From the NCBI GenBank assembly GCA_003614675.1, contig ML002420.1:1-32567 (forward strand): 32,567 bases of DNA, given 5' to 3'. Positions 2,256 to 17,813 of this stretch are shown here, piece after piece (the first letter of the stretch is position 1; every line of letters starts with the position of its first letter). Position numbers and translations under genes: made by a program. Origin of the DNA: Dimargaris cristalligena. Lineage: Eukaryota. Under the pieces are notes generated by a model that did not search any database, had not been told where the DNA came from, and saw nothing but the letters and a program-made list of their open reading frames with translations.

Positions 2256-3920
2256 ATGAGCCGGGCCAATGTGTTGCTCAACTGCCTGGGGTTTGCCGCC
2301 CTCACCGGCTACCTAGTCCACCTCGTTAACCAGTTCGTGCCTGAACCATACATGGTAAGTTTGTCATACGCGAGGAATAGTAGTAGTGGCAAAGGGTTAG
2401 GGTAACAACAATGCCCCTACCGAATACCATTCCCCCGCCTAGTCCCAGAGACTGGCCGACCGACTGGGTTGGCCTGGTTGTATACACACCTCATGTGCAA
2501 GTCCTTCACTCTAAACGCAACCCCCCCCACTTACATACGCGCATATATACACAATATCTCCCTACTTTTCTAACCCCAGGACGAAAAGTTCCATGTTGCC
2601 CAGGCCCAAGCCTACTGCCGCGGCGACTTTGCCTACTGGGACCCGAAGTTGACCACCCCTCCGGGCCTTTATATTTTATCGAACTTCCTCCTATACCCCC
2701 TCCGGTGGCTCCCAGCGACTCTGGGCGGCGTCAACAATGCCTGGTGGTGCTCGTCCACCGCCGCGCTGCGCTACACCAACTGGTTTATTCTGGTTCTCTT
2801 ATACGGAGTGATCGTGGCCGTTCTCCGGGAACGCCATCCCGGCCAACCGTCCTCCCGACTGTTCCTGGAAGCCTGGTCGGTCACCAGTTTCCCCGTCCTC
2901 TACTTTGTATCGTTGCTGTATTACACTGATGCGGGATCGACGCTCTTCATTGTACTGGGCTATTACGGGGCACTCCGGCGCCGGCACGGGTGGGCGGCCC
3001 TGAGTTGTTTAGTATCGCTCACGTTCCGCCAAACCAACGCCGTCTGGACGGCCCTGGTGGCCGTGACCGCCCTACTCCAGGAATTCAATCAGCTGGCGGG
3101 CGTGGAACCCGCCGCCCGGAAGGAGGTGTGCCTGGTCCGGGCCAGCCAGTTGAACATTTACTACGAAGGAATCCGCCATGTGCGGTCAGTCGGGGCCGCG
3201 CTCTGGCGCCACCGCGTGAACCTGTGGGCCCCCCTGGTCCCTTATTTGCTGGTTGAAACAGCGTTCGGCGCCTTCCTGGTGGCCAACGACGGGATTGTCC
3301 TCGGGGACCGGGCCCACCACGTTGCCGGCCTGCACTTCCCCCAAATCTACTACTGCGCGGCGTTCCTATCCACCATCGCCGCCCCGCTGCTCTTCCGCCT
3401 GAACCACCCGGTGGGCTTCCTCACCTACACGGCCAAGTACCTGCGGAGCGTTCGGTTTATCCTCCTCAGTCTCCTGCTAATTATCGGCACCGCCTACTCG
3501 ATCTACCGGTTCACTTACGAGCACCCCTTTATTCTGAGCGACAATCGGCATTACTCATTCTACGTGTGGAAGAACATCTACCGGGCCCACCCAACCGTGC
3601 GCTACGCCCTGGTGCCCTGTTATTTTTTCGGATTCTGGCTGCTCTCGGGCATCCTGGCCACCCAGCAAACCCTCCTCTGGTGCCTGACTTACCTGGGGTG
3701 TACCGCCCTTACCCTGATCCCGTCCCCCCTCTTCGAATTCCGCTACTTTATCCTGCCCTTCTACTTCTTCCGGCTCGGCATTCCTCTGCCCAAACCCCAC
3801 CGGACCTGGTACGAACTGGTGTGGTATACGTTGATCAATTACGCCACCCTGTATATCTTTTGCATGCGGCCTTTTGAATGGCCCCAAGAACCCGGGGTCT
3901 GGCAACGCTTCATGTGGTAG
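2256..3920 (+). CDS. ALG10: Dol-P-Glc:Glc2Man9GlcNAc2-PP-Dol alpha-1,2-glucosyltransferase (ALG10/DIE2); exons 2256-2354 and 2580-3920, 479 aa
   Basis: The intron 2355(GTAAGT)-2579(CTAACCCCAG) joins 'VPEPYM|DEKFHVAQAQAYCRGDFAYWDPKLTTPPGLY', the ALG10 N-terminal signature. Other family motifs: 'LLYYTD', 'FRQTNAVW', 'NDGIVLGDRAHH', 'HPFILSDNRHYSFY', 'PSPLFEFRYFILP', C-terminal 'RPFEW...QRFMW'. Many hydrophobic transmembrane segments. Confidence 0.97.
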
Positions 3921-5007: not shown

Positions 5008-6517
5008 ATGTCCAGCATAGATTCGCCCGTTCTCTTGTCCGTACGCGAACTATGCAAGAAGCGGATGCCCAATGGACTACCGTCCAGTCCCATGCCAACC
5101 CGTTCGGTTAGTTCGTCCCGATCCAGCATCCATGCCATCGTCCCACCGCCGCACAGCACAGGCGCCACTTTCCGTAAAACCAAAGTCGCGCCCACCGATT
5201 ACGGCAGTATCGTGGTAGGCAGTGATGGTAACGGTGGAGGCGAAGGAGACACCGAAGGAATCACCACCCCGCCCCCCCTCCGTACTGGGTCTATCGACCA
5301 GTGGTTGTGGCGGTGTCCTTTTGCGAAAAAACCGCCGTTACCCTAGTGGGTCGGGCGTGGCCTCGCCGGCCCCTTCCGATGAAACCGATGGGGTGGCGGG
5401 GGCCGAAGCCGATGCGGAATGCGAGGCCGATGGCGAATCGACCTCTTTACTCCACCGCGACAGCAGCCCGTCGTTGTCTTCGTCATCAGCGAACAGCAGT
5501 CGAATTTCTTTAGCTACCCCCCATGAAGCCGACCCTCCGGTCCAGGACGATTATCTCTGGTACAATGTCCAATTTGCGCTGACCCGGGGGGACACGCTCA
5601 TCATCGAAGGGCCCAGCGGAGTGGGTAAAACCACCCTCCTGCGCGCCATTGCCCAACTCACCGATTATGCGCACGGCCACCTTTTATTACATGACCGCGA
5701 GACCCCGCAGTCCCTGGGGGTCCCCCAGTGGCGGGCCCGCGTGATGTACGTCCCCCAATACCCGGCCATTTTCCCCGGCTCGCCGTTGGATTATTTTTTT
5801 AAAATTAAGGGGTTCGCCGCCCATGCGAACAAGACCGTGTGGGATGATCCCGTGGAAATCGCGAATCGCTGGGGTCTGCCAGAGGAATGCTGGTGCTCGG
5901 AATGGCGTAATTTATCGGGCGGACAGGCCCAGCGGGCCGCCCTGGCCATTGCCGTGGCATGTAAACCCGAGGTGCTGCTTTTGGACGGTAAGGCTTTGGT
6001 ATATCTAGATGTTACCTATATTTAGGAAATGGGGGAAGGAGTAGGGGTATCTACATGACAATTGCCCTTATTGGGTGGATTGATCTATTGGGACATCTGG
6101 GGATAGGAATATATAAAAATAGGGAGGAAAAGAAGAGAGGGGGAATCGGCCTAGTCCATCCCTCCGGACTATCGTATACCCATCCCATCGTACTTTCCTA
6201 TATACATATATAAATATATCCATCCGATCGGCTAATCCTAGATGTTCTCTGATCCAACGTGTCCTTCATCCCTTGTTCATTACACGCGGCGCGTGTTCCG
6301 ACTAACAGAGCCCACCAGTGCCCTAGACCCTAAATCATGCCGCCTGGTTGAGGCTACCCTACTTTCCTACACCTGCATCTGGGTGACCCATGACCCCAAC
6401 CAGGCCCGTCGAGTGGGCACCAAGATTCTGCACCTCTTCCCGGATGCCCGCAGCTCCATAGAGACCACCACCCCCAATCCTGAAGCCGCTTCGTCGTTTT
6501 CCGATTACAGCATATAG
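5008..6517 (+). CDS. Stand-alone ABC ATP-binding protein (single NBD, no TM domain), YbbL/FetA/STAR1-like; the junction between N-terminus and core is unresolved
   Basis: Walker A 'GPSGVGKTT', Q-loop 'MYVPQ', signature 'LSGGQAQR'. Walker B/D-loop 'LLLD|EPTSALD' is completed by splicing intron 5988(GTAAGG)-6308(ACTAACAG). H-loop 'WVTHD'. Stop TAG at 6517. ATG 5008 in another frame gives 'VLLSVRELCKK', the typical first beta-strand of ABC NBDs. Confidence 0.85.
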
Positions 6518-8690: not shown

Positions 8691-8694
<4 letters not shown>

Positions 8695-10748
8695 GACATT
8701 TCCGAATTCGTATCCGCATCGGCACCCGCCTCAGCCTCAGCAGCAGCAGCAACAATAGCTTCATCTTTATCAAGCTCGGATTCAACCTCAATCTCGACCT
8801 TGACTCTCTTGGTTGGTGGTTCATGGTGAAGCCGTTCCACGACTTTACCCATCTGGGCGAGGAAATCCTTCTGCTGGTTTAACAGGTGTTCCTGGAAGGC
8901 GCGGTTACTCGCTTGTTGTTCCTGGATTAATTCGAACATCCGTTGGTAGTTGACCTGCATTTGCCGCTGCATGGTTTCCACGGACCCCATCAGTTGCATT
9001 TGCTTGTCATGGTGGGCGAGTAGGGTCGTGGGTGACTGGGGGGAGGTGGAGAGGGAGGCCAGGGTTTCTAAACCGCAGGTTTGCCGGTCGTTGGCGGTGG
9101 CGACTACCCCTGCTACTACTTCTTGGGAGGCCCCTGTGGAAACGGAAGCGGAAGAGGGGGAAGAAGAAGAAATAGAGCTCGCGTTGGCGGGAGTGGGAGT
9201 GCCGGTAGGAGGGGTTGGCATGGTAGTGGTAGCAAGGATGGGTACCGAAGGGGAAGCCGTCAATGAAGAGGACCGGAAGGGGTTGCTCGTCGCATGACCA
9301 CCATTGGCCGTCGAAGGTTCGGGTGTAGCTCCCCGGTAGGACGGAGCGGGACTCTCACGGGGGATGGAGCCAACCGGGGTTTGGCCACGGGAAAAACTGC
9401 CGTTACCGTTACCGTTGGGGTTAGGCTTGGCTGCTACCAGGGGTGAAATCCGGGCCTGGTACGACGCCTGCAGGGAATGTTTAGACTGGTGCTGGTGGTA
9501 GGCTTCGGTCGCAATCGCGGCCATAGCGGCCATGGGAGTAAGGTCGGGCAAGCCAGTAGCGGGTGAAGTACCCGTGTTCCAACCGGCGGTATCGTGCCGA
9601 CTGAGCATGGTTTTGGTGGTGTAGTTGGGGTGGGGACCCGAATGGCTGGAGAGGTGCTGCTGACGGGGGCGGTGGCTATGGCTATGGTTGTGCGGCTGTT
9701 GCTGATGATGGTGATGATGTTGCTGACTGTGGCTGATCGACGGGGGACCTACCGAAGAGGCTCGGGGATTGTCAAGGTGTTGGATGGGCGGGAGGGAAAA
9801 TCCCTGGCTACTACCCGAGCCGCCATTGGAGTGATGGAAAGCCGACGCGGGTTTACCGGCGCCATTGGTAGCGTGGGCCGACGCGGAAGTTTGGACCGGT
9901 AGGCTGGTGGATTTGGTGGCGAAACTGGGCTCCAACGAGTGGAAGCCGTGAGCGGAAGCGGACCCGCGGGGGGCCCGGACTGAACTCATACTCGGACTAA
10001 GGGACTGGGGACGCCGATGGGCCGAGGCGGCCGCTGCCGCCATACCCGACAATCCGTGGTTGTGGTGGTGATGGTGGGAGTTAGGTGGGTTGGTATGGTG
10101 GTGAATGGGTGAATGGTCCATATCCTCAGGGCCCGACCCAGTATGACCTTCCGCTTCGTCATCGGTGACTACCTCGGGGTCATTACCGAAAATATGGTTG
10201 AGCTCATCGAAAAAAGCGCAGGCCTTACGGGCGGCCTCCAGAGGGTCCGGCAGAGATTGGTGCAATCCATTGTGGCCATCCACGCCATAGGCTCCTCCTC
10301 CTCCTCCTCCGTTGGCCATCCGCCGCACCTCGTGTTTCCGCCGGTAGGCCTTCAACACCTGACGGGCCCGTTGGTATTCCCGAATCATGTATTCGAGCTT
10401 GTTGCGGATTTGCTTAGGCCGTTTATTGGGCAGGATTTTCTCGGACAGTTCGCGACAGCAGTTGGCCTTCAAACCGTTGGCGTAGCGCCGGCGGTTCTTA
10501 TGCGGGCGCAGCCATTTCAGCATTAACAGGACCTCTTCTTCGTCCCAGCATTTGGGGGCCACGGATACCAGGGCGCTCGAGGAGGAAGTGCCACTGATGG
10601 AAGGGGTATTGGACGACGAGGAAGAGGGGTTGGACGGAACGGGACTGAAGGAGTGTAGCCGGCCCGTGTCGGAGACGTGGCCAGCGGGTGAGCCGTCTAC
10701 CATAAACATGGGGTCGCGGGAAGGTGTGGAGAACCCAACTTGAGACAT
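8691..10748 (-). CDS. Myb/SANT-like (trihelix/MADF-type) DNA-binding protein with His/Ser/Pro-rich disordered middle and C-terminal coiled coil, 685 aa
   Basis: Long intronless ORF. 'KCWDEEEVLLMLKWL...KANCCRELSEKI..NKRPKQIRNKLEYMIREYQRA...KACAFFDELNHIFG' fits the Myb/SANT-like pattern W..eE...Ll...kQi.nK...l...Y....c.fF.el..if. Gln/Met-rich amphipathic helix 'QMQLMGSVETMQRQMQVNYQRMFELIQEQQASNRAFQEHLLNQQKDFLAQMGKVVERL' followed by NLS-like 'PPTKRVK'. Confidence 0.8.
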
Positions 10749-12153
10749 GGTTTAAAAAGGCTCTGTAGCAATCAGCAGGAGTGTGGATATGGGGCAAAGG
10801 CAAGGGACAGGCGCCGGGGGTAATAGTATTACTTGGGCGAGTATGCAAGTCCAAAGGGTCGTGGAAGAGAGGCTAGCAAATGCAGAAGTGAATACAGTTA
10901 AAGCAGCAAAGATATCAATAACAGTGAGAGAGGGAGCCCAAGCGTGGTGGCCAATAAATCGTAATTTAAATAATGAGAGTGAGCAGAGGAATGATACAAT
11001 CTATGGGAGTAGGGAAATAGATATTTAAGGACAGGTCGTTCAAGACAAGGCAAGATAATGATGCGATTTAGAATACAATTGCGGATATGGCTAAAAATGG
11101 TAAATGGAGAGAGTGAGAGTTAGAGGAAGATACGGAAAAGGGTAAAAAACAGCGGGGCGGGGAGGGGAGAGGGGATAGAGACATTGAAACAGAGAGAGTG
11201 TGAACCTTAAGCTGACCGAACTGGAGGAGGAGGGGCTCGCGGTGTATTTATAGATACGGTCGGAGTCGAAACCCCGCTGGAGTAGCAACCGACAGGCCCC
11301 TATATAAAAAAAGGGGGGCACAAAGGAGGGGGGATCCCTAGAATGAGCGATGAACACCCCATCCGCTTCCTACCGAACGATGCGGCCAATCCTTACCGAA
11401 GCAGCCCAGTGAATTATGGATTTTGGTGCTCTTTAATTTTAGTACTGGGTTCTCTTTCAAACTTTATGAGGGTGGTAGAGGGATTCCAGGTAGCTGAGGC
11501 CATGTCCCTATTTTAGGAGAAATAGTCCGCTGGACAGTAGAACGAGAGTATTCCAATATACTCCCGATTATCAGGAGTTCGCGGGTTCTTACCAATGAGC
11601 AAGCCCATCCATGGCCGGTAGATACTTCACCCCAAAAACCATTATGGTCCTTAAATAAACCGGTGAGGGGGAGGGGGGTGTGGCCATGATTTAGAGACGA
11701 ATTAGAATACGCCAAAAATAACGAGTTTAAACAAAAACATAAAATAAAAAGGGGATAATGAGCGGACATGGACAAGCAGAAAAGGTTCAGATGGAGGAAT
11801 AATTTACCGCTATGGTCACTCGGGTATTGTGAAGCAGTTGTCCGCTTGGAAAAGAGGGTGGCATATTATAGAAGAGAGGGGGGCATATGTACCCTCTTTT
11901 TCCTTGACCATCCATGGCCCTGCCGAACAGCCATCAGCATCAGAGGGGTAGGGAATACAATCCAATCATGGGGTCCATACGAATGATGGTAACCCCGCCT
12001 TAGCCAATGTCTGACTAGCTAAGGTTGATCTTAATATGAACCAGTCAATAGGCTTGAGCAATGCCTCTCTTGGCTGCTGTCCCCCGAGCAACACTCCTTC
12101 GGGGGGTCTATTGGACAGGTACCCGAGTAGCCGATCTTGCTGTGTCCTTGCCA

Positions 12154-14707: not shown

Positions 14708-17700
14708 ATGGCGAGTTTAGTCAGCCTGATTCAAGCCACTCGGTAAGCCAGCTAGCTGCCATACCCCGCGTCCACCGCCCAGCCTGCTACCGTAGACCCA
14801 CTCACTACAGGGAGGCACCAAGCAGCGTAAACTGTCCCGTAATTCTCATATGCCTCAATTTATCGGCCCCTCTATACCACCACCACCATATCCTCCGCTT
14901 TGATACCATTGCAGTGTGAGCTCAGTTCTCAACAAAGATAACCGTAGTTACGGCAAGAAACACTTGTTTGACGGAAACGAAGAGACCTGTTGGAATTCCG
15001 AGCAGGTAAATCTCTTCATTAGTATTCATTGACCCCCATAGCCTGTTTTATTGACGCTGCTCGACGAACTATCCCCTGTATTTTGTTCTTGATTTCACCT
15101 ATTCTACTTATTCGGGAGAATCAATTCATTATTTAATGATGCCCATTAACCGAACAAATGTATTCCCCCGATTGTCCGCATCTGGGAATACCAATCCCCG
15201 CCCCCATCCGGCCCGCGGTTCAATTCTCTTTGCACCAAACTAGGGCTCGCCGCAGTCGATAGTTGTCCAATTCAGCAAACCCGTCCGCCTGGACGAGATT
15301 CGCATCATGTTTCAGGGCGGGTTTGCCGGTAAACATGCCCAAGTATGGGTGGCTTCAGCCGCCGAGGAAACCCTGCGTCACCACAGCAATTTCTACCCCG
15401 ATGACAACAATACTTTACAAATATCCTCCTTTTTGTAACAGCAACCCGCCCCTCCTTCTCACACCTCCATGGTGGAAGAAAGGGGCTGACTAGGTGTGTC
15501 CTGAGAGATACGGAAATATAGAGGATGGCGAGGTGGGACAGTCAGCCCATAGTATGATTCACTTCTTTACTACAATTCCAAACTGCACTAACTCGGGAAT
15601 ACAGTGTGAATTGCCCCCTCTCTACTTACCCGCTGCCGCCGATGGGCGGGTGTAACCATTATGACACACCCGTCTAGTATAGTTAGTAGTGCGTCAGTTC
15701 ACCACTTCCTAAGTTGGGCAATGATTAGAAGTTGGACTATTATTATTTTTTTGCCCACACCTTTTATCTGTCTCAGTCACCGCACACCACACCGGAAGGG
15801 GTAATTTTACCCGCACGCCCCCAAGGTAAGATCTCCCTGTGATTGCCAGTGTTAGATTGACCCCCCAATTCGGTTGCCTCCCCCCCCCCCCCCCCCCAAT
15901 AATGGTGATATCGAACCGAGGCATTTTTGTTTTATTACTACGTTTGAGGGCCTAGATATCCCTGCCTAGTTTGCGCCGTCCATTCCACCCCCCTTTTTCT
16001 CGTTACCATAGCCCAGTAATGCTGACAGTGCGCGCCTTTACCTGAGACGAACCTTTTTACCAATAGCGTCCATTTTTTTTACTTCAGAGGGTGTGGGGGA
16101 TTGGCATGATATCCTTGGGGGGTCGACATGCTAGGTACATCCGCAGGAGAAGTCTGGCGAATTAACGGAGGATTTCCCCCCCAACCCACTGGTTAAACGA
16201 TCGAAATGAAACGACCGGCTGACCTTCTATGGCTAAGAGCTTACTCTGATGGTCCAGGCCAGTTAGTTAGCTGGTTGGTGGAAGGGGTGTGTGTGTATGT
16301 GTGTGTGTGGCATTTACCGGGCTATATCCATTGGCCGGTTGGGAATTATAGACCGCCAATCTAATCCTCGATTAAGGCTGTCATGGCGAAACCCTAAACT
16401 ACATCCTCCGCCCTTTTCATTTCTGCAGCGTCTTAGATACACCACAGCACACACCACGGGGCTTGCTGAATTAGCGGCCTTTGCCAATTAGCGAAATGGA
16501 ATCAAACTCCTATTCCTCCTTATCTGGTCTTAGCCGCAAGGCGAGTGTGCTGATGATAATAATGATGATTCGTGGGCCCAAATGCTGATTCTGAATACCT
16601 TTTCCCTTATTCAGTAGTAATGGCCTGGACTTTTGCTGATTGAGTGGTGTGGTTCCTCCAACATGGCCAATCATTATTTTGGAGGAGGGGTGGAAGTGGG
16701 ATTTCCTCCTAATCATCAGAAGCGCGGCCCGCTCCCAACTCTCCCACCTTTTCAATCTAACTGGCTGACTTCACTCATTCGGACTTTACTAACCTTCTGT
16801 CATCCTCACTTATCCACCCGCCCATCTCTAAATATATATTTACACTGTATTTATTTTTATATAGGCCTATATACTAGTCGAGAGTGCGCCATCTCTCGAT
16901 AGACCTTCACCCCCCTCCTTTCTTCACTCCCCGTTATACACTCACGCCTCGTATATACCTCTTCTATCTACCCACTGTCACTCATTCCTGTGTTTCGGAT
17001 TAGCCACTGACATTAAGGACCATCCTGGATGTCAAGCCAAGTCAAGTGGTCCGGATTTAACTATACTTGGTCCAGCTGGGGTATTTCAAGGCTGACGGAA
17101 GGATGAATGAGGAGGGGGACCCCCAATGGTAACTGTGGTATTTCTTGACTGGTGAGGATGTCTGTGTGCGTGTGTGTATCACACTGAACACAGTGGGGTC
17201 CGCTAGTGTGGATACGTTAAGAATGTAGTGAAGCATTGGCTTCTTCGGTTCCTAATGATGGCGGCCTATTCCAGCGGGTCTCACTTGCTTATCCGGATTC
17301 TGAATTTCCAAAAACAGCCCCTTCTCAGTAGCATTCTGACTGTACGGCAATATACCTATATGTTTAGTAGTTGGAAACCCGTCCCAACACTCTAACTTCA
17401 GTGGATATGTTCGATGTCTAGACCACCGCGCCCTCCCCTCCTCTATATTCCTACTCCCCTCCCCCCCCCCAAAAAAAACATGACCAAGCTCCATATACGG
17501 CTTGATCCCATTGTAAATTTTTACCTCGACGGTACCGCATCTAGCAACCGTGGGGGTATGTGTGTGTGTGTATCCCCTTAACTCTTCCCGCTATACATTG
17601 CCTTATTTTTGCTATATTTTATAATGTATGTTGCCAATTCCATGTAACCCGCGAACCATCCTCAAACCTGCGATTCCGAATCATTACGTCTTTCCCCTGA

Positions 17701-17813
17701 CGACCCTTGAGGCCCCCGTGGTCGAGCGCCTCAAGATTATTTTCCCCGAGAGTACCGACTTTTTCGGCCGCATTACCATTTACCGCCTCGATATTATCGG
17801 CATTGAGGCATGA
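14708..17813 (+). CDS. NR2C2AP: Nuclear receptor 2C2-associated protein (TRA16) homolog, galactose-binding-like fold; exons 14708-14742, 14915-15005, 15244-15420, 17688-17813; 142 aa
   Basis: Spliced translation: MASLVSLIQATR|VSSVLNKDNRSYGKKHLFDGNEETCWNSEQ|GSPQSIVVQFSKPVRLDEIRIMFQGGFAGKHAQVWVASAAEETLRHHSNFYPDDNNTLQ|VFPLTTLEAPVVERLKIIFPESTDFFGRITIYRLDIIGIEA*. This is colinear with the NR2C2AP family motifs VSSVLN, GKKHLFD..EETCWNS.QG, FQGGF, FYP.DNN.LQ.FP and F..STDFFGR..IY.L. Start context is ACCATGG. Introns: 14743 GTAAGC..TGCAG 14914; 15006 GTAAAT..ACTAG 15243; 15421 ATATCCTC..TTAC 17687. Total 429 nt, in frame. Confidence 0.95.
15421..17687 (+). other. U12-type (minor spliceosome) AT-AC intron, 2,267 nt, phase 0
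   Basis: The 5' end ATATCCTCC follows ...TTA CAA (LQ) and fits the U12 donor consensus RTATCCTY. The 3' end ...CATTAC precedes GTC TTT CCC (VFP). Removing it restores the family motif 'NNTLQ|VFP' without a gap. There is no AG between 17545 and 17709, so no GT-AG alternative preserves the motif. Branch-point candidates are TCCTCAAAC (17659-17667) and CCCCTTAAC (17574-17582). Confidence 0.88.

Follow-up and report, generated by a model that had tools for sequence, protein, structure and literature searches.

The contig ML002420.1 of the fungus Dimargaris cristalligena (GenBank assembly GCA_003614675.1) raises the question of how the third and the fourth exon of an NR2C2AP-family gene are joined, since 2267 nt separate them (15421-17687, + strand) that begin with AT (15421-15422) and end with AC (17686-17687). 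We analyzed the whole stretch of 32,567 nt, hereafter called the window, and all positions are counted from its first letter. A preliminary description of this DNA, made from the letters alone, had proposed a U12-type AT-AC intron, possibly an ancestral one. This proposal is supported by the ATATCCT donor, by the AT-AC ends, by the lack of any GT-AG or GC-AG join that keeps the conserved flanks and by 15 homologues that carry the residues I-S at the same place. We judge it likely that the interval is a genuine intron, that it is spliced and that it descends from an ancestral AT-AC intron of the U12 type.

Exon 3 (15244-15420, + strand, 177 nt, phase 0 at both ends) encodes a segment ending in ...FYPDDNNTLQ, and its final codons are AAC AAT ACT TTA CAA. 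The boundary 15420/15421 reads ...GATGACAACAATACTTTACAA/ATATCCTCCTTTTTGTAAC. At the other end, intron 3 closes with CATTAC, the boundary 17687/17688 reads ...GATTCCGAATCATTAC/GTCTTTCCCCTG, and exon 4 continues with GTC TTT CCC CTG. Exon 4 (17688-17813, + strand) consists of 41 codons plus a TGA at 17811-17813 and encodes VFPLTTLEAPVVERLKIIFPESTDFFGRITIYRLDIIGIEA. When 15420 is joined to 17688, the product reads ...DNNTLQ/VFPL... and carries the C-terminus with STDFFGRITIY, as the preliminary description had predicted. Its coordinates for the end of exon 3, the end of the intron, the stop codon and the interval free of AG were also exact to the base. Within 17450-17720, AG dinucleotides start at 17487, 17543 and 17710 only, and none is found between 17545 and 17709. 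Inspection of the sequence revealed no clear polypyrimidine tract in intron 3.

If exon 3 is read on without splicing, the frame is closed after ISSFL by an in-frame TAA (15436-15438, + strand), and this is also where the public gene model ends. Exon 3 is 100% identical to the NCBI protein P0001 of D. cristalligena, which is 106 amino acids (aa) long and named "Nuclear receptor 2C2-associated protein". The C-terminus of this protein is ...FYPDDNNTLQISSFL, i.e. ...DNNTLQISSFL, which is the read-through to the intron TAA. The NCBI gene finder ran into intron 3 and halted at 15436-15438, leaving a shortened public model. The warning that a gene finder restricted to GT-AG introns would truncate the gene is borne out by this entry, and the protein matches agree with the earlier assignment of the DNA to a fungus and of the gene to an NR2C2AP-like family.

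Family membership was assessed with a hidden Markov model (HMM) built from 22 full-length orthologues and searched against all six-frame pieces of the window. This model matched three pieces of the + strand, namely exon 2 (E 3e-16), exon 3 (E 9e-20) and exon 4 (E 2e-12), and the profile coordinates of these matches abut each other (10-42, 43-101 and 101-137). The similarity to named family members extends over the full length and includes the blocks ETCWNS, FQGGF-GK and STDF-GR, and many of the homologues are named NR2C2AP. Single exons gave only sub-threshold matches to Pfam, and the homologues carry precomputed PF00754 and PF22633 assignments. Judged by these similarities, the gene product is a small F5/8-type-C, galactose-binding-like protein of the NR2C2AP family.

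The same search defines the junction. The HMM alignment of exon 4 opens at residue 22 of its piece, which corresponds to nt 17688, and the homology break coincides with the start of ATATCCT and with the AC end of the intron. The spliced product aligns to the homologues across the junction without a gap. U12-type introns have the donor consensus RTATCCTY, and the octamer ATATCCTC at 15421-15428, which directly follows the last homology-aligned codon, fits it. In the nine nucleotides of the putative U12-type 5' splice site (15421-15429, + strand, ATATCCTCC), all 8 of the 8 consensus positions agree. The heptamer RTATCCT occurs 8 times on both strands of the window, and about 8 occurrences are expected (2 x 32567/8192). 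By itself, the motif is therefore not beyond chance, but its location at the homology-defined break is. The 7 remaining RTATCCT sites of the window do not terminate any plausible coding exon. Another exact copy of the 9-mer ATATCCTCC is found at 14888-14896 (+ strand), inside intron 1 and 27 nt before its 3' splice site; for any given 9-mer, about 0.25 copies are expected per window on both strands. U11-binding elements act as splicing regulators in some minor-spliceosome genes, and the intron 1 copy may be such an element or a product of chance.

From these data, the following mechanism can be proposed. The interval 15421-17687 would be a spliceosomal intron of the minor (U12) class, AT-AC subtype and phase 0, inherited from an AT-AC intron that the common ancestor of animals and fungi already had at this codon boundary. 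If it is processed as other U12-type introns are, its 5' ATATCCT would base-pair first with U11 and then with U6atac, and a branch adenosine close to the 3' end would be chosen by U12. The exons would be joined as TTACAA/GTCTTT, yielding a protein of 142 aa, the last 41 residues of which would complete a beta-sandwich. We infer from the sequence that removal takes place in vivo, that it is carried out by the minor spliceosome and which adenosine serves as the branch point.

Can an ordinary intron account for the same gene? We enumerated all joins between 28 GT, GC or AT donors (15330-15520) and 223 AG or AC acceptors (up to 17790). There were 36 in-frame joins that keep STDFFGRITIY, and 24 of them are of the GT-AG or GC-AG type, so that a conventional intron, for instance from the donor GTATGG at 15343 to the AG at 17710-17711, would preserve both the frame and the C-terminal motif. 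All of these 24 joins, however, start from a donor no later than 15360 and lead to an acceptor no earlier than 17712, and each of them deletes the segment FYPDDNNTLQ...VFPL (34 residues in the GTATGG example). This segment holds residues that are invariant in the 22-sequence alignment (D94, Q99 and F101 of the homologue P0014), and the NCBI gene finder picked none of the 24 joins. We therefore regard an ordinary GT-AG intron as extremely improbable. Both conserved flanks are kept without inserted residues by the join of 15420 to 17688 only. Two other acceptors were rejected. Joining the AT at 15421 to the AC at 17647-17648 stays in frame but adds 13 residues found in no homologue. Taking the AC at 17595-17596, which follows a CCTTAAC at 17576-17582, as the true 3' end adds 91 nt, shifts the frame and loses exon 4.

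Exon 4 itself is well conserved. It bears the STDFFGR block common to the family, and 22 of its 38 aligned residues (58% identity, E 9e-17) are the same in the protein P0104 of the congener D. xerosporica. In the structure that AlphaFold2 predicts for the Basidiobolus orthologue (mean pLDDT 81, pTM 0.77), three strands lie at or past the junction (residues 98-102, 109-116 and 127-137). According to this model, these three strands of the beta-sandwich would be missing from the annotated 106-aa product, which argues that exon 3 must be joined to exon 4. The intact and conserved exon 4 also leads us to infer that the organism keeps a working minor spliceosome.

These data bear on a second explanation, according to which the intron is a relic in a decaying gene: minor splicing would have been lost, and only the 106-aa product or nothing would be made. 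The branch site at chance level and the great length of the intron, both described below, would fit such a relic, and so would the pronounced loss of minor introns inferred for the ancestor of the Zoopagomycota in the available text of PMC10639083. A decaying gene is, however, difficult to reconcile with an open frame of 41 codons that lies 2.27 kb downstream and is still recognized by the family HMM, with the identity of exon 4 to the congener's protein, with a 5' splice site that fits the consensus at every position and with a shortened product that would be devoid of three strands. In our judgment, a relic is quite improbable.

Evidence that the intron is old comes from the homologues. In three protein searches (with the best 120 of 223 and the best 120 of 134 matches taken in two of them), 219 distinct proteins were aligned, and 214 of these carry a glutamine in the junction column. 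After this glutamine, 189 proteins continue in the normal form Q-x-[FLYWMI], 16 with IS, one with VSF and 8 with other residues. On inspection, all 16 IS proteins were abnormal past the junction, being cut short, carrying an insert or ending in a divergent tail. They stem from D. cristalligena and three other early-diverging fungi (D. xerosporica, the zoopagomycotine Syncephalis pseudoplumigaleata and the chytrid Blyttiomyces helicus), from a mammal, a bird, a lizard and a fish among the vertebrates (Nannospalax isoform X2, Chlamydotis, Podarcis and Polypterus) and from a spider, a tick, rotifers and a bivalve (Argiope, Ixodes, three Rotaria models, Adineta and Pinctada); one further entry is a JGI protein. 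Hence, at the protein level, 15 homologues other than the D. cristalligena model read I-S after the same glutamine and look aberrant onward. The tripeptide I-S-F is present in 14 of the 16 proteins; D. cristalligena has ISSF (ATA TCC TCC TTT), and Nannospalax has ISC.

I-S-F is the phase 0 reading of ATA TCC TTY, that is, of the consensus U12 donor ATATCCTT, and thus the shared ancestor of animals and fungi probably possessed this AT-AC intron already. Two pairs of models add to this picture. Two entries of Podarcis muralis differ by an insert of 32 aa (ISFFPF...VFLNCSSLY), in which F-L-N is compatible with TTCCTTAAC and the final Y with TAC, and two Rotaria models differ by an insert of 15 aa (ISF...VN). 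Read in this way, both pairs display whole retained introns, and this codon boundary is likely to be occupied by an AT-AC minor intron in animals as well. The eukprot entry P0144 ends with ...NQLQVSF; here, VSF corresponds to GTA TCC TTY in phase 0 and fits a U12 donor of the GT subtype at the same position.

Compared with this presumed animal NR2C2AP intron, the Dimargaris intron has the same position and phase, right after the conserved glutamine of FYP-D-N--Q, and the animal read-through starts with I-S-F (I-S-C in one case), i.e. with ATATCCT. The two differ in length, since the implied introns measure 96 nt in Podarcis and 45 nt in Rotaria but 2267 nt in Dimargaris, and in the branch site, since F-L-N of Podarcis fits the consensus whereas D. 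cristalligena has no such match.

Several observations weigh against an ancestral intron that is still spliced by the minor machinery, and the branch site is the first of them. In U12-type introns, a branch-point sequence close to TTCCTTAAC is expected some 10-20 nt before the 3' splice site. No U12-type branch site that would support the U12-type assignment was demonstrable in the last 45 nt of intron 3. The best sequence there is TCCTCAAA, which matches TCCTTAAC at 6 of 8 positions and thus does not exceed chance: a match of this quality is reached in 14-56% of random 41-nt windows of this sequence, according to which consensus is applied, the figure of 14% referring to windows that reach 6/8 matches to TCCTTAAC. 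This candidate (17659-17667, + strand, TCCTCAAAC) is weak and unproven, and its adenosines at 17664-17666 are located 22-24 nt from the 3' end, compared with an optimum distance between branch site and 3' splice site of 11-13 nt given in the available text of PMC3584512. The AC at 17686-17687 is the first AC or AG past this candidate. In a second candidate, TTCCGAATC, the adenosines at 17679-17680 are just 7-8 nt away from the 3' end. The sole exact CCTTAAC of the intron tail sits 106 nt upstream of the 3' end.

The length of the intron also counts against this interpretation, for its 2267 nt correspond to about 10 times the length of the two GT-AG introns of the gene. Moreover, outside the window, the I-S-F evidence consists of back-translated protein models and not of DNA. 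Finally, the intron is absent from many lineages, as indicated by read-through in metagenome loci. Here, we scanned metagenomes for orthologous loci and considered the best 80 of 263 relatives, a ranking by tblastn that is biased to uninterrupted genes. Among these 80 loci, none had RTATCC after the glutamine codon; 78 were uninterrupted at the junction, one (L040) contained a GT-AG intron, and one (L078) ended before the junction. A contiguous junction motif was matched by 66 of the 80 loci, and the remaining 14 comprised 12 loci read through by tblastn together with L040 and L078.

The intron of L040 deserves a brief description. In this AT-rich orthologue, positions 617-760 form a short GT-AG intron (AA/GTAAGA...TTTTAAG/A), which interrupts in phase 2 the codon following the conserved glutamine. 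It is located 2 nt downstream of the position of the Dimargaris intron and could be a converted, a slid or an independent intron.

A similar distribution was seen closer to Dimargaris. The Kickxellomycotina models of Coemansia, Linderina, Martensiomyces, Dipsacomyces, Kickxella and Smittium (among them P0025, P0037, P0050, P0068, P0033 and P0197) are uninterrupted at the junction. Judged by these models, the intron is probably gone or conventional in those genera, and within Kickxellomycotina, the AT-AC intron seems confined to Dimargaris. In the Mycoemilia model (P0209), the junction is short and odd, Q-I-N-E.

The lack of a recognizable U12-type branch site is also what favors a third explanation, in which the major (U2-type) or a mixed machinery removes the AT-AC intron. 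The interval would then be a 'hybrid' with a minor-type 5' end and without a minor-type branch site. However, ATATCCT is a donor of the U11/U6atac type that pairs poorly with U1, and U2-type AT-AC introns use a different donor. In addition, the donor seems to be kept in D. xerosporica, the model of which reads ISF, and exon position -1 is an A and not a G, a feature that the available text of PMC11347168 ties to dependence on the minor spliceosome. We consider such a hybrid very improbable. Introns of this kind, i.e. U2-type AT-AC and 'hybrid' or 'minor-like' introns, share with the Dimargaris intron the AT-AC ends and the weak or absent minor-type branch site, but differ from it in that the Dimargaris intron has the full minor-type ATATCCT and an A instead of a G at exon position -1.

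A more far-reaching scenario, which we rate as unlikely but worth stating, is that Dimargaris splices a 2.3-kb minor-type intron whose donor is of the consensus U11/U6atac type but which lacks a canonical U12 branch site, so that branch-site recognition would be relaxed or rewired in this lineage. If this were true, splicing would proceed via a diverged U12 snRNA or with help from U2, and the intron would represent a natural intermediate stage of a decaying minor system. Other Kickxellomycotina would then already have lost or converted their intron.

The interior of the intron was also inspected. At 17576-17596 (+ strand), CCTTAAC is followed by an AC 15 nt on, which is the textbook layout of a U12 branch site and 3' end, located 91 nt upstream of exon 4. 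When the AC at 17595-17596 is used, the frame shifts and the protein ends after 16 extra residues. This element could serve as a decoy, or else as an alternative 3' site that is unproductive. The two longest stop-to-stop open reading frames overlapping intron 3 (16621-16902 on the + strand and 17252-17590 on the - strand) had no Pfam match. Searches with Rfam gave no match in the window at gathering thresholds and none in 15300-17800 at E<=1, and no snRNA gene was found in the window by Rfam. No repeat of at least 40 nt occurs in the window, and thus there is no sign of a repeated element that inflated intron 3. A tract of over 20 C residues is present in the intron, as are several (GT)n microsatellites (these stretches lie at 15875-15898, 16288-16310, 17161-17178 and 17556-17572). 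Such tracts are prone to assembly error, and the length of intron 3 may therefore be slightly off.

The remainder of the gene is conventional. Exon 1 (14708-14742, + strand, 35 nt) opens with the ATG at 14708, and its translation is the start of the NCBI protein P0001. Intron 1 (14743-14914, + strand, 172 nt) is an ordinary GT-AG intron (GTAAGC...TTGCAG). It is followed by exon 2 (14915-15005, + strand, 91 nt), which encodes VSSVLNKDNRSYGKKHLFDGNEETCWNSEQ, and by intron 2 (15006-15243, + strand, 238 nt), which is again of the ordinary GT-AG type (GTAAAT...AACTAG). Taken together, the spliced coding sequence consists of 4 exons on the + strand and comprises 429 nt, i.e. 142 codons plus stop. 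The neighboring open reading frames (1-552, 2574-3920 and 5219-6025 on the + strand; 8691-10751 on the - strand) belong to ordinary fungal genes, and the domains found in them were Fungal_trans, DIE2/ALG10 (E 2e-112), ABC_tran and a weak Myb/SANT-like match.

In animals and plants, canonical U12-type AT-AC introns are removed by U11/U12/U4atac/U6atac. The Dimargaris intron resembles them in its ATATCCT donor, its AT-AC ends, its position as the lone exception among GT-AG introns and its lack of a clear polypyrimidine tract, but it differs in that no recognizable branch site of the TTCCTTAAC type is present 11-13 nt from the 3' end. Minor introns in fungi outside Dikarya are already established. 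According to the available text of PMC10639083, they number in the hundreds in Basidiobolus meristosporus (Zoopagomycota) and in Rhizophagus irregularis, whereas Dikarya have none. Genes for U11, U12 and U6atac are described for several zoopagomycote and mucoromycote species in the available parts of two further sources (10.1101/2022.10.12.511939; PMC11347168), in which U4atac often went undetected. The Dimargaris intron is comparable to the minor introns of B. meristosporus, R. irregularis and Neocallimastix californiae in that all of them occur in fungal lineages outside Dikarya. As far as their available texts go, the surveys of early-diverging fungi classify annotated introns, and the Dimargaris intron is missing from the NCBI model. 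None of the main texts searched pairs Dimargaris or Kickxellomycotina with U12, or Coemansia with 'minor splic', although supplementary tables of surveys or databases may list D. cristalligena. The combination of Dimargaris with 'spliceosom' occurred in the searched main texts only in an unrelated phylogenetic-marker study. NR2C2AP was named as a minor-intron gene in no searched main text, and here, too, supplementary tables of surveys or databases may list the gene.

The locus exemplifies an annotation error that recurs across animals and fungi: the NCBI model is shortened, and damage at this position is also apparent in at least 15 further public models of the family. The tripeptide I-S-F following a conserved residue may serve as a cheap flag for hidden AT-AC introns in protein databases. 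With its absent branch site and its unusual length, the Dimargaris intron may be a test case for the strictness of U12 recognition in fungi that keep few minor introns. For the organism, our findings point to minor splicing in the kickxellomycotine order Dimargaritales, and for the family, they suggest that one AT-AC intron has held the same codon boundary since before the split of animals and fungi.

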